Below are positions 29,521 through 29,703 of a DNA stretch of 64,000 nucleotides, one piece after another; position 1 is the stretch's first letter; every line of letters starts with the position of its first letter. The notes beneath the pieces were generated by a model. That model searched no databases. It was not told where the DNA came from and worked only from the letters and a program-made list of their open reading frames with translations. The stretch covers positions 256,001-320,000 of the forward strand of contig OZ244905.1 of assembly GCA_965221695.1 (NCBI GenBank). The letters run 5' to 3'. Source of the stretch: Gammaproteobacteria bacterium. Lineage in GTDB: Bacteria; Pseudomonadota; Gammaproteobacteria; Eutrophobiales; Eutrophobiaceae. The position numbers and the translations under genes are program-made.

Positions 29521-29549
29521 TTGACAACCCCTCATCTGTATACGATAAT
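29521..29549 (+). promoter_or_regulatory. sigma70 promoter pointing into the antisense of the tRNA-like element
   Basis: TTGACA-17-GATAAT. Confidence 0.75.
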
Positions 29550-29564
29550 CACAGTTGGAGCCAT

Positions 29565-29667
29565 TGGTGTGCCCAGGACGGGGATCGAACCCGTAAGGCA
29601 TGTAGGTATTTCTACAGAGGCCGGGGGAGTGGCAATCCCCTGTGTTTACCGTTTTCACCACCTGGGC
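29565..29667 (-). tRNA. Atypical tRNA-like gene: tRNA-Leu-type body with Gly anticodon (GCC), 29-nt variable region, 3' end A-CA-CCA
   Basis: GCCCAGG/CCTGGGC acceptor; GTG-AAAACGGTAAA-CAC D arm; GGGGA-TTGCCAC-TCCCC anticodon arm; ACGGG-TTCGATC-CCCGT T arm. Structure is clear; function and expression are not. Confidence 0.7.
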
Positions 29668-29672
29668 AGAAT

Positions 29673-29703
29673 AACCCGTCTCCTTAGGGGGACGGGTTTT
29701 TTT
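29673..29703 (+). terminator. Intrinsic terminator
   Basis: AACCCGTCTCC-TTAG-GGGGACGGG then T7; the stem includes a U-G pair that forms only on the plus strand. Confidence 0.8.

Follow-up and report, generated by a model that had tools for sequence, protein, structure and literature searches.

A predicted mirror transcript facing an anticodon-switched, leucine-type tRNA look-alike in an uncultured gammaproteobacterial genus

Several described systems provide precedents for short bacterial loci in which one RNA restrains another, or in which a tRNA joins the body of one family to the anticodon of another. Among the closest are the convergent, fully overlapping sRNA pairs such as SdsR/RyeA of enterobacteria, sometimes filed as type VIII (RNA toxin/RNA antitoxin), in which two non-coding RNAs are made from opposite strands of one short locus, each from its own differently regulated promoter, and one is thought to neutralize the other by complete pairing. 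In type I toxin–antitoxin systems of the hok/sok kind, a strong antisense RNA promoter faces a weaker or regulated sense promoter, and the loci are short, accessory and often multi-copy, with paralogues that differ in their recognition loops; there, the sense RNA encodes a small hydrophobic toxic peptide. The tRNA-ProX dual-identity tRNAs of Streptomyces and Kitasatospora (PMC11415595) are natural, accessory and lineage-restricted tRNAs that combine the body of one amino-acid family with anticodons of others, in some cases depart from U33, and are proposed to cause regulated mistranslation; they are co-encoded with a dedicated synthetase, ProRSx, and no antisense unit is described in the text that we consulted. 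In ColE1 RNA I and other antisense RNAs with anticodon-loop-like recognition loops, a cloverleaf-like RNA with 7-nt loops starts pairing by loop–loop kissing, and the loop sequence sets specificity and incompatibility. Finally, T-box leader RNAs display a codon followed by a purine in a loop, contain a complement of the NCCA end and end in a terminator.

We uncovered a locus that parallels these systems in part in a 64,000-nt window of a gammaproteobacterial genome (GCA_965221695.1, contig OZ244905.1, positions 256,001 to 320,000; all coordinates below are those of this window). It is one copy of a repeated module in which a tRNA look-alike of leucine type, bearing a glycine anticodon in this copy, is faced by a strong promoter and a terminator that would yield its exact mirror RNA. 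Unlike in SdsR/RyeA, one partner is a full tRNA-shaped RNA with an anticodon, the module is multi-copy with an apparent specificity loop, and there is no sequence or Rfam relation. Unlike in the tRNA-ProX systems, there is a dedicated mirror transcription unit but no second synthetase: a single LeuRS match lies above the cut-off in the genome (1145 bits), the other matches are 64 bits or less, and the genes flanking the units differ between loci. Unlike ColE1 RNA I, the module is chromosomal and not linked to a replicon; no relatives were found in the viral contigs or in the phage collection searched, and the plasmid collection gave only a 52-nt partial match in two Proteus records. Literature searches, which covered mostly listings and the beginnings of abstracts and did not extend to supplementary tRNA lists, returned no paper describing an antisense transcription unit opposite a bacterial tRNA or a natural bacterial tRNA-Leu with a non-Leu anticodon, and no described family matches.

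The preliminary description of this locus, which had reported a transcription unit reading an odd tRNA backwards, holds as an observation. On the plus strand, the promoter TTGACA-17-GATAAT at 29521-29549 matches 11 of 12 consensus positions, and the intrinsic terminator at 29673-29703 comprises a stem at 29673-29698 (11 pairs, 7 of them G-C, with a loop of 4) and a T7 run at 29697-29703. Genome-wide, only 13 sites on both strands of 3.54 Mb match TTGACA-17-(at least 5 of 6 of TATAAT), against about 3.8 expected from base composition, and 3 of the 13 are the three odd-tRNA units of this genome. Between the promoter and the terminator lies a minus-strand element (29570-29667) that scores 52.6 bits against the Rfam tRNA family RF00005 (gathering score 29); the two other copies in the genome score 52.1 and 53.3 bits. 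ARAGORN does not call it, because of its 28-nt variable arm. An Rfam search of both strands had been suggested beforehand as a check, and on the plus strand nothing reaches a threshold, with the best sub-threshold hits at 15-17 bits against thresholds of 49-55. Other details of the preliminary description are likewise real: a U-G pair in the terminator becomes C-A on the minus strand (alignment columns 26/38), the neighboring tRNA-Leu(CAG) (29329-29415, minus strand) has its own minus-strand promoter, TTGACA-17-TAAAGT, at 29482-29454, and rnr starts at 29908, beyond the terminator. Among the 47 tRNA-type genes of the genome, only the 3 odd ones have a convergent promoter of 10/12 or better within 90 nt; these score 11/12, whereas the other 44 score 9/12 or less.

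The locus had been treated as a singleton, but it is in fact a multi-copy family restricted to one genus, with up to a dozen copies in a genome. A sequence search gave 34 hits of 137-167 bits in 13 genomes of the genus and none of that strength in the other 33 genera of the order; BLAST found the unit in 13 of 22 genomes of the genus. In one of these genomes, G003, at least 10 copies sit in a repeat-dense 10-kb stretch beside other repeat families. Pfam searches of 8 ORFs found RTX repeats, a Gp49/HigB-like protein and coiled-coil proteins, but no integrase, so an integron cassette array in G003 is not supported. The whole unit is missing from the same locus in the congener G002, which fits an accessory module. 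A more distant relative in a further genome, G001, has the same architecture, namely an A-run hairpin, an 86-nt Leu-like class II tRNA and a convergent TTGATA-17-TATAAT promoter, and its anticodon is CGC (Ala).

Loss of the promoter and terminator from relatives that retain the element had been named in advance as an outcome that would count against a dedicated antisense unit; we found instead that both are conserved with the element in all 36 of 36 distinct full units. In these, TTGACA is invariant, the spacer is always exactly 17 nt but free in sequence, and the −10 box, which matches at least 4 of 6 positions, is GATAAT in 25, GATACT in 6, CATAAT in 2, GACAAT in 2 and AATAAT in 1. All these promoter and terminator assignments are consensus matches, and no transcript of either strand has been seen; a survey of sequencing runs gave no expression data. 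The predicted antisense RNA of ~148 nt (29556-29703, plus strand; the start is inferred from the −10 box and has not been mapped) comprises the mirror of the tRNA plus the terminator, and folds as a mirror cloverleaf plus terminator with −65.6 kcal/mol (z = −3.75, 0 of 200 shuffles as stable). Copies differ by 0, 1 or 2 bases in the stretch just inside its predicted 5′ end, so no reading frame is kept across copies, and the overlapping 81-aa ORF has no Pfam match. On this evidence we rejected a peptide-coding mirror RNA and membership in the type I toxin–antitoxin systems. A T-box-like leader was also rejected, as there is no Rfam T-box hit and no gene lies downstream in the antisense direction in the tandem copies or at the second locus; the resemblance to T-boxes follows automatically from being the complement of a tRNA.

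The minus-strand element is a class II tRNA-like gene, with position 1 at 29667, the discriminator A73 at 29570 and a variable arm of about 28 nt. Alignment to the other tRNAs of the genome identifies tRNA-Leu(UAA) as its closest paralogue (66/84 identical, score 35 against 13.5 or less for all other tRNAs). A73 is kept in 35/36 units while the following bases vary, and the D-loop has the same length and the same G18G19 placement as that of tRNA-Leu(UAA). Hence, the element satisfies the tRNA-Leu identity rules of E. coli (A73, a class II body with a Leu-type D-loop, and no anticodon requirement), although these rules were not tested here and charging by LeuRS was not examined. It is, however, not a leucine isoacceptor: the anticodon at 29631-29633 is GCC, which reads Gly GGY (the same three bases read GGC on the plus strand, exposed in the mirror loop), and among 38 distinct units the anticodons are GCC in 19, GUC (Asp) in 16, GCU in 1, AUC in 1 and unreadable in 1. 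An anticodon-agnostic metagenome scan gave 7 of 7 true members with GCC or GUC. The codon sets read by these two anticodons, GGY and GAY, rank 1 and 2 of the 32 two-codon sets in a crude codon count of the genome (61.7 and 60.6 per 1000). As to whether the gene could furnish a working elongator, the signals are mixed and leave the matter undecided: the anticodon loop is 7 nt in all units, with U33 in 33/36 and C33 in 3/36, whereas the CCA, which directly follows the discriminator in most tRNA genes of this genome, lies 0, 1 or 2 nt after A73 depending on the clade; the out-of-register CCA and the C33 copies are odd for a working tRNA, and charging and ribosome use were not measured. The hypervariable loop of the long variable arm (29606-29611, AAAUAC in this copy) is represented by 25 distinct sequences among the 36 units, which are nearly all different within a genome, but 8 loops recur across genomes. 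Among 9 copies in G003, the pairwise difference is 0.455 per site in this loop against 0.012 in the tRNA stems.

Strand assignment from G-U covariation had also been put forward as a check, and here the signatures of the two parts of the unit point in opposite directions. In the terminator hairpin, 7 non-Watson–Crick cells, at 5 of the 8 core pairs, are C.A/A.C in the tRNA-sense reading and hence G.U in the antisense reading, against 0 G.U in the sense reading, and the loop-closing pair is C.A in sense in 27/36. In the tRNA stems, by contrast, there are 16 G.U cells in the sense reading at 5 pairs, three of which persist in 3, 3 and 8 units, against 5 single-unit A.C cells. Counted as independent events rather than cells, this stem signature is modest, with about 5-7 sense-type events against 5 antisense-type singletons; moreover, all the relatives are metagenome-assembled genomes of one genus, so the copies are not independent. 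Still, 98.8% of stem cells are paired, with 4 pairs showing compensatory changes and 28 doubly changed cells, a value reached by 0 of 500 shuffles, and G.U intermediates in the sense reading link the compensatory states at pair 11:24 (U-A, U.G, C-G) and pair 49:65 (A-U, G.U, G-C).

We also found signals for the tRNA-sense strand that the preliminary description had not seen. A candidate minus-strand promoter lies at 29712-29740, with a −35 TTGTCG (29740-29735), a 17-nt spacer and a −10 CAGAAT (29717-29712), and its predicted start is near 29705, so that the terminator hairpin of the antisense RNA sits in the 5′ leader of the tRNA-sense transcript. The hairpin followed by a U-rich stretch could also stop tRNA-sense transcripts before they reach the tRNA. 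This copy matches the consensus weakly (8/12), as expected of an activator-dependent promoter; in other species the −10 is TATAAA, TATAAT or TACAAT. Centered about 60 bp upstream of the predicted sense start is a CRP-type palindrome (29759-29774; TGTGA-N6-TCACA, with one mismatch here), which is present with at most 1 mismatch in 29/36 units at a near-constant distance. Three tandem-internal copies and four others lack the sense promoter, as does the G001 relative, leaving the antisense unit as the only constant feature. The layout of the candidate sense promoter and its palindrome is the same at the second locus and at six other promoters of the genome, where the site sits 18 nt before a −35 box; an Rfam search of eight other palindrome-bearing loci gave no hit at E up to 0.1.

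As one of the other sites drives a GGA-rich CsrB-like RNA, CsrA is present, and a UvrY-like regulator is found at 177 bits (below the 280-bit cut-off), we considered a GacA/UvrY box as the identity of the palindrome; the motif is not printed in the text consulted for it (PMC2375449). We set this aside in favor of a CRP-family site, because the conserved core across species is TGTGA-N6-TCACA, with a variable sixth base, and because the genome encodes, at 945783-946301 in genome coordinates, a Crp-family regulator whose helix-turn-helix region carries an R-E-x-x-S-R stretch that aligns with the T. thermophilus CRP-family regulator. However, no true CRP orthologue (best 56.5 bits against a cut-off of 266), no PF00325 hit and no class I cyclase were found in the genome; the regulator therefore stays unassigned, whereas the geometry of the site is shared with the six other promoters.

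Taken together, the anatomy of the unit, the conservation of signals on both strands, the strand-specific wobble signatures, the Leu(UAA) ancestry and the anticodon repertoire are what the sequences demonstrate, whereas transcription of either strand, pairing, charging and any effect on translation are our inferences. We tentatively favor a convergent sense/antisense RNA pair in which the mirror RNA restrains a translation-interfering tRNA. In this view, a near-consensus, presumably constitutive sigma-70 promoter starting about 13 nt outside the tRNA 3′ end transcribes the mirror up to a strong terminator 5 nt beyond the tRNA 5′ end, and the abundant mirror RNA pairs with the tRNA-sense transcript, probably starting by loop–loop contact at the anticodon loop and the variable-arm loop. 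Convergent transcription would add interference, so that the tRNA is kept inactive until the activator fires, upon which the tRNA would outrun its brake and interfere with decoding of GGY and GAY codons, either by inserting leucine or by acting as an uncharged A-site tRNA. The hypervariable loop would act as an address that keeps paralogous pairs from cross-talking. Toxicity and neutralization, which would define a type VIII-like pair, were not assayed. The interpretation in the preliminary description is partly supported: of its three options, a cis-antisense brake on a potentially mistranslating tRNA is the best fit, pairing with tRNA-Leu(UAA/CAA) is weak, and an sRNA using a mirror cloverleaf as a scaffold is not excluded.

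The alternative that survives best, though we consider it doubtful, is that the mirror RNA is the effector and the tRNA-sense RNA its regulated sponge. Here, the plus-strand product would be a trans-acting sRNA born from an inverted tRNA, which uses the mirror cloverleaf as a scaffold to show a codon-like loop (GGC or GAC followed by A) and the variable-arm loop to partners such as the anticodon loops of tRNA-Gly(GCC) and tRNA-Asp(GUC), or to mRNAs, with the activator-driven sense transcript titrating it. In its favor, the antisense promoter and terminator are the only features present in every unit, including the tandem-internal copies and the G001 relative, whose sense side has no visible promoter; the 5′-proximal stretch of the mirror RNA (the complement of CCA-A-GG) is at least 90% conserved, although a tRNA 3′ trailer is normally free to vary; the terminator with U7 is typical of sRNAs; and the mirror RNA folds well. 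However, the wobble pairs that persist in the tRNA stems break the mirror fold, A73 is conserved, and variation falls at the classic tRNA variable positions, all of which indicate selection on the tRNA-sense fold. Moreover, a 7-nt loop contact is a weak basis for trans action, and no target was identified.

It is less likely that the unit is a selfish or decaying repeat, with the tRNA look-alike a pseudogene lacking any RNA-level function and the promoter and terminator kept for the element's own spread or by recent copying. The multi-copy, patchy distribution, the presence or absence at the same locus in congeners, the repeat-dense setting in G003, the failure of ARAGORN to call the gene and the out-of-register CCA are compatible with it. 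Against it, the promoter spacers have diverged while TTGACA stays invariant, the stems show compensatory changes, the wobble signatures are strand-specific, the anticodon set is narrow and the variable-arm loops are kept across species, all of which indicate purifying selection on function rather than recent copying; further, no terminal repeats, transposase or integrase were found with the unit. The last alternative, that the mirror RNA targets the genuine tRNA-Leu(UAA) or its precursor to limit UUA/UUG decoding, is very unlikely: although the odd tRNA derives from tRNA-Leu(UAA), the first 15 nt of which are complementary to the mirror RNA apart from one G.U, and UUA and UUG are rare codons here (5.2 and 19.6 per 1000), the body is only 66/84 identical, the most accessible parts, namely the anticodon and variable arms, have diverged completely, mature tRNAs are poor antisense targets, and an anticodon held at GCC or GUC makes no sense for a Leu-directed antisense RNA and argues that the anticodon itself matters.

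A more far-reaching possibility, which we regard as unlikely on present evidence but not ruled out, is an RNA-only addiction or stress module in which the toxin is a tRNA, either leucine-accepting or deliberately unchargeable, that is aimed at the genome's two commonest two-codon sets, switched on by a cyclic-nucleotide-type regulator and held in check by its own constitutively made mirror RNA, with the hypervariable loop serving as a pairing address that insulates up to a dozen paralogous pairs in one cell.

The locus also holds a practical lesson for annotation, in that the real expression signals sit on the strand opposite to the one that a tRNA finder would report. If both strands are expressed as the sequence predicts, this would be the first case of a tRNA-shaped RNA under dedicated cis-antisense control, in a system small enough (about 260 bp) to be moved into E. 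coli and tested directly. It would also be a natural, regulated source of either leucine misincorporation or decoy-tRNA stalling at very common codons, and would link three fields that have been studied apart: natural mistranslating tRNAs, antisense RNA control and toxin–antitoxin logic.

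The locus lies in G000:C1:256001-320000, G000 being the 3.54-Mb, 55% GC single-contig source genome, between purA (27958-29274, with an Adenylsucc_synt domain) and rnr (29908-32028, with RNB and S1 domains). Here ARAGORN recovers only the tRNA-Leu(CAG) at 29329-29415 on the minus strand, whereas the Rfam tRNA model additionally scores 52.6 bits at 29570-29667 on the minus strand. This second gene displays a 7-bp acceptor stem, a 3-bp D stem, a 5-bp anticodon stem with the loop UUGCCAC (anticodon GCC), a variable arm of about 28 nt, a canonical T arm and A73. A consensus scan found TTGACA-17-GATAAT on the plus strand at 29521-29549 (11/12 positions) and, also on the plus strand, an 11-pair hairpin with a T7 run at 29673-29703. 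The anatomy given in the preliminary description is correct, including the U-G pair in the terminator and the separate minus-strand promoter of tRNA-Leu(CAG) at 29482-29454.

The unit belongs to a family and is not a singleton. A BLAST search with 29440-29720 against 41 genomes matched 14 of them, counting G000 itself, which amounts to 13 of 22 genomes of the same genus and 0 of 18 outside it; the matches start at the -35 box and end just past the T-run. G000 has two further copies in tandem at 2201233-2201520, between a nadA-like and a yebC-like gene, and another genome of the genus, G003, has at least 12 copies within about 10 kb. A repeat-dense 10-kb stretch of G003 (G003:C1:1144800-1156500, positions 1800-13500 of locus L021) holds at least 10 of these units mixed with other repeat families, one of which is a 96-nt repeat present 14 times at 92-100% identity; small ORFs lie between them (RTX repeats, a Gp49/HigB-like protein and proteins with 33-bp coiled-coil repeats), and no integrase was seen in this stretch. 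We built a covariance model of the hairpin plus tRNA (R1) and ran it over the whole order (126 genomes, 34 genera), which gave 34 hits of 137-167 bits, all in 13 genomes of this genus, followed after a gap by one hit of 84 bits, with everything else scoring 76 bits or less; 20 of these weaker hits were sampled, and all 20 were the ordinary tRNA-Leu(UAA).

A pattern scan of 185,579 species genomes returned only metagenome-assembled genomes, with 19 of the 21 stretches labelled Gammaproteobacteria bacterium and two short contigs carrying other labels. A 3-kb contig labelled Acidimicrobiia (L032) carries three units, two of them with rare anticodon loops (GCU and AUC); as its taxonomic label disagrees with all other carriers, it may be mis-binned. 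A scan of metagenome contigs that was agnostic to the anticodon gave seven true members, while viral contigs gave none, and the phage and plasmid collections searched hold nothing similar. In the congener G002, the same purA-tRNA-Leu(CAG)-rnr locus lacks the whole unit, with 29491-29905 of the window having no counterpart there. Within this segment, at 29795-29905, an extra stretch of about 75-110 nt before rnr contains a long inverted repeat (around 29843-29883); this stretch is absent from the orthologous locus of another genome, G008 (L002), and may be a small inserted element or a leader hairpin of rnr.

We collected 38 distinct units, of which 36 were full length with enough flank to analyze; the two left out were a 52-nt fragment (L023) and a 5′-truncated copy (L045). 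The preliminary description had stated that the idea of a dedicated unit would fall if its promoter and terminator were not conserved with the element in relatives, and this was not what we observed: in 36 of 36 units, the strand opposite the tRNA carries TTGACA, a 17-nt spacer and a -10 box, the latter being GATAAT in 25, GATACT in 6, CATAAT in 2, GACAAT in 2 and AATAAT in 1, even as the sequence of the spacer differs freely between clades. The antisense signals are conserved as signals. Genome-wide, only 13 sites match TTGACA-17-(at least 5/6 of TATAAT), and three of them are these units, whereas none of the 44 ordinary tRNA genes has a convergent promoter better than 9/12.

The assignment of the strand from wobble pairs, likewise proposed in advance, indicated that both strands are selected, but in different parts of the unit. 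In the hairpin, every non-Watson-Crick cell is C.A or A.C when read on the tRNA strand, which means G.U on the antisense strand: there are 7 such cells at 5 of the 8 core pairs, the loop-closing pair is C.A in 27/36, and there are no G.U cells in the tRNA-strand reading, the single U.G cell in the stem tally coming from one row that is shifted by a column in the alignment (A2). In the tRNA stems the picture is reversed, with 16 G.U cells in the tRNA-strand reading at five pairs, three of which persist in 3, 3 and 8 units, against 5 A.C cells, each in a single unit. Counted as events rather than cells, the tRNA-stem signal is modest, and we therefore treat it as support and not as proof. Two compensatory series pass through sense-strand wobble intermediates, with pair 11:24 going from U-A through U.G to C-G, and pair 49:65 from A-U through G.U to G-C. 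Overall, 98.8% of 1296 stem cells pair and 28 cells carry double changes; 0 of 500 shuffles reach this value.

The tRNA-sense strand features what appears to be its own regulated promoter. Upstream of the hairpin, on the tRNA strand, 29 of 36 units carry TGTGA-N6-TCACA with at most 1 mismatch, situated 105-110 nt before tRNA position 1 in most units and 88-100 nt in a few, and followed at about -55 by a -10-like box (TATAAA, TATAAT or TACAAT; CAGAAT in this genome). Three tandem-internal copies and four others lack the palindrome. In G000, the same palindrome sits exactly 18 nt before a -35 box at six other promoters, which places its centre near -61.5. One of these drives a GGA-rich, CsrB-like RNA region of about 250 nt with roughly seven GGA motifs, just upstream of proS (G000:C1:1442746-1443050, positions 347-650 of locus L049); it looks like a CsrB/Rsm-type sponge of CsrA, which is encoded at 1650034-1650189, although no Rfam family matched it. 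Three more precede paralogous copies of an unknown structured RNA-like region near 424821, 427661 and 828838 (loci L046-L048), each behind the palindrome and a TTGTCA/TTGGCA-TAAGAT promoter and without an Rfam hit at E up to 0.1. Another, at 2174469-2177569, precedes a small ORF with a signal-peptide-like start, for which a ComEA-like identity is only a guess by eye, and the genome's only leuS follows directly.

The regulator acting at these sites is not identified: searches of the genome found no true CRP and no class I cyclase. There is, however, a Crp-family protein whose helix-turn-helix region aligns with that of solved CRPs and carries R-E-x-x-S-R. It lies next to a 425-aa ORF whose N-terminal stretch resembles, by visual inspection alone, the end of a class III nucleotide-cyclase domain. 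The best UvrY/GacA-like response regulator match (177 bits; G000:C1:582278-582913, locus L055) is reported with one in-frame TGA inside the match.

The closest relative of the tRNA in the genome is tRNA-Leu(UAA), with 66/84 positions identical and an alignment score of 35 against 13.5 or less for every other tRNA. A73 is kept in 35/36 units while the next bases vary, and the encoded CCA lies 0, 1 or 2 nt further on. The anticodons of the 38 distinct units are GCC in 19, GUC in 16, GCU in 1, AUC in 1 and unreadable in 1; the pattern scan of species genomes forced G34, C36 and A37, but the unbiased sources, namely the BLAST search, the covariance model and the anticodon-agnostic metagenome scan, nevertheless give the same two anticodons. 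The genome also codes for normal tRNA-Gly(GCC), tRNA-Asp(GUC) and tRNA-Leu(UAA), and for a single LeuRS. In a crude codon count over 1142 long open frames, GGY (61.7 per 1000) and GAY (60.6 per 1000) rank first and second of the 32 two-codon sets. The distant relative recovered at 84 bits in the genome G001 (G001:C12:104336-104520, positions 437-620 of locus L072) is an 86-nt Leu-like class II tRNA with the anticodon CGC, which ARAGORN calls tRNA-Ala; it is preceded by an A-run hairpin with a T-run and followed by a convergent TTGATA-17-TATAAT promoter. The architecture therefore travels with a switched anticodon, and not with one particular anticodon.

The most variable part of the unit is the 6-7-nt loop of the variable arm. 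Among 9 copies in G003, the pairwise difference is 0.455 per site in this loop, as against 0.198 in the anticodon loop and 0.012 in the rest of the tRNA. Across 36 units there are 25 distinct loops, and within a genome almost all of them differ (9 of 10 distinct in G003, 5 of 5 in G008 and 3 of 3 in G000), yet 8 loops recur in different genomes. Loops that differ among paralogs but are kept among species behave like labels and might confer specificity.

While the anatomy and its conservation rest on the sequence comparisons, how the module works is a matter of inference. The plus-strand promoter is among the strongest consensus matches in the genome and should make a mirror RNA of about 148 nt, predicted to fold as a mirror cloverleaf plus terminator, whereas the tRNA-sense promoter would need an activator; the two RNAs would be fully complementary, with their 7-nt loops being natural kissing partners. 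Hence, we read the module as a cis-antisense brake on a tRNA that could disturb the decoding of very common codons, as in one of the options raised in the preliminary description, whose interpretation is supported in part. The disturbance could arise either because the tRNA is charged by LeuRS, which in E. coli ignores the anticodon, or because it sits uncharged in the A site; the variable CCA register and the three copies with C33 lean towards the second route in some clades. As no transcript has been observed, the full mechanism is tentative, although we are considerably more confident that the plus-strand unit is a real, selected transcription unit. The main rival is that the mirror RNA is itself the effector and the tRNA-sense RNA its sponge.

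No Rfam family covers the plus strand, and searches of the literature found no description of such a unit. The nearest analogs in logic are convergent sRNA pairs and type I toxin-antitoxin loci. In substance, the nearest are the dual-identity tRNA-ProX of actinomycetes (PMC11415595), which come with a dedicated synthetase and, in the text consulted, without mention of an antisense unit. We regard the module as a form of antisense RNA control that differs from those already described in the kind of target it has, and it is still possible, as a bolder reading, that it constitutes an RNA-only toxin-antitoxin pair in which the toxin is a tRNA.
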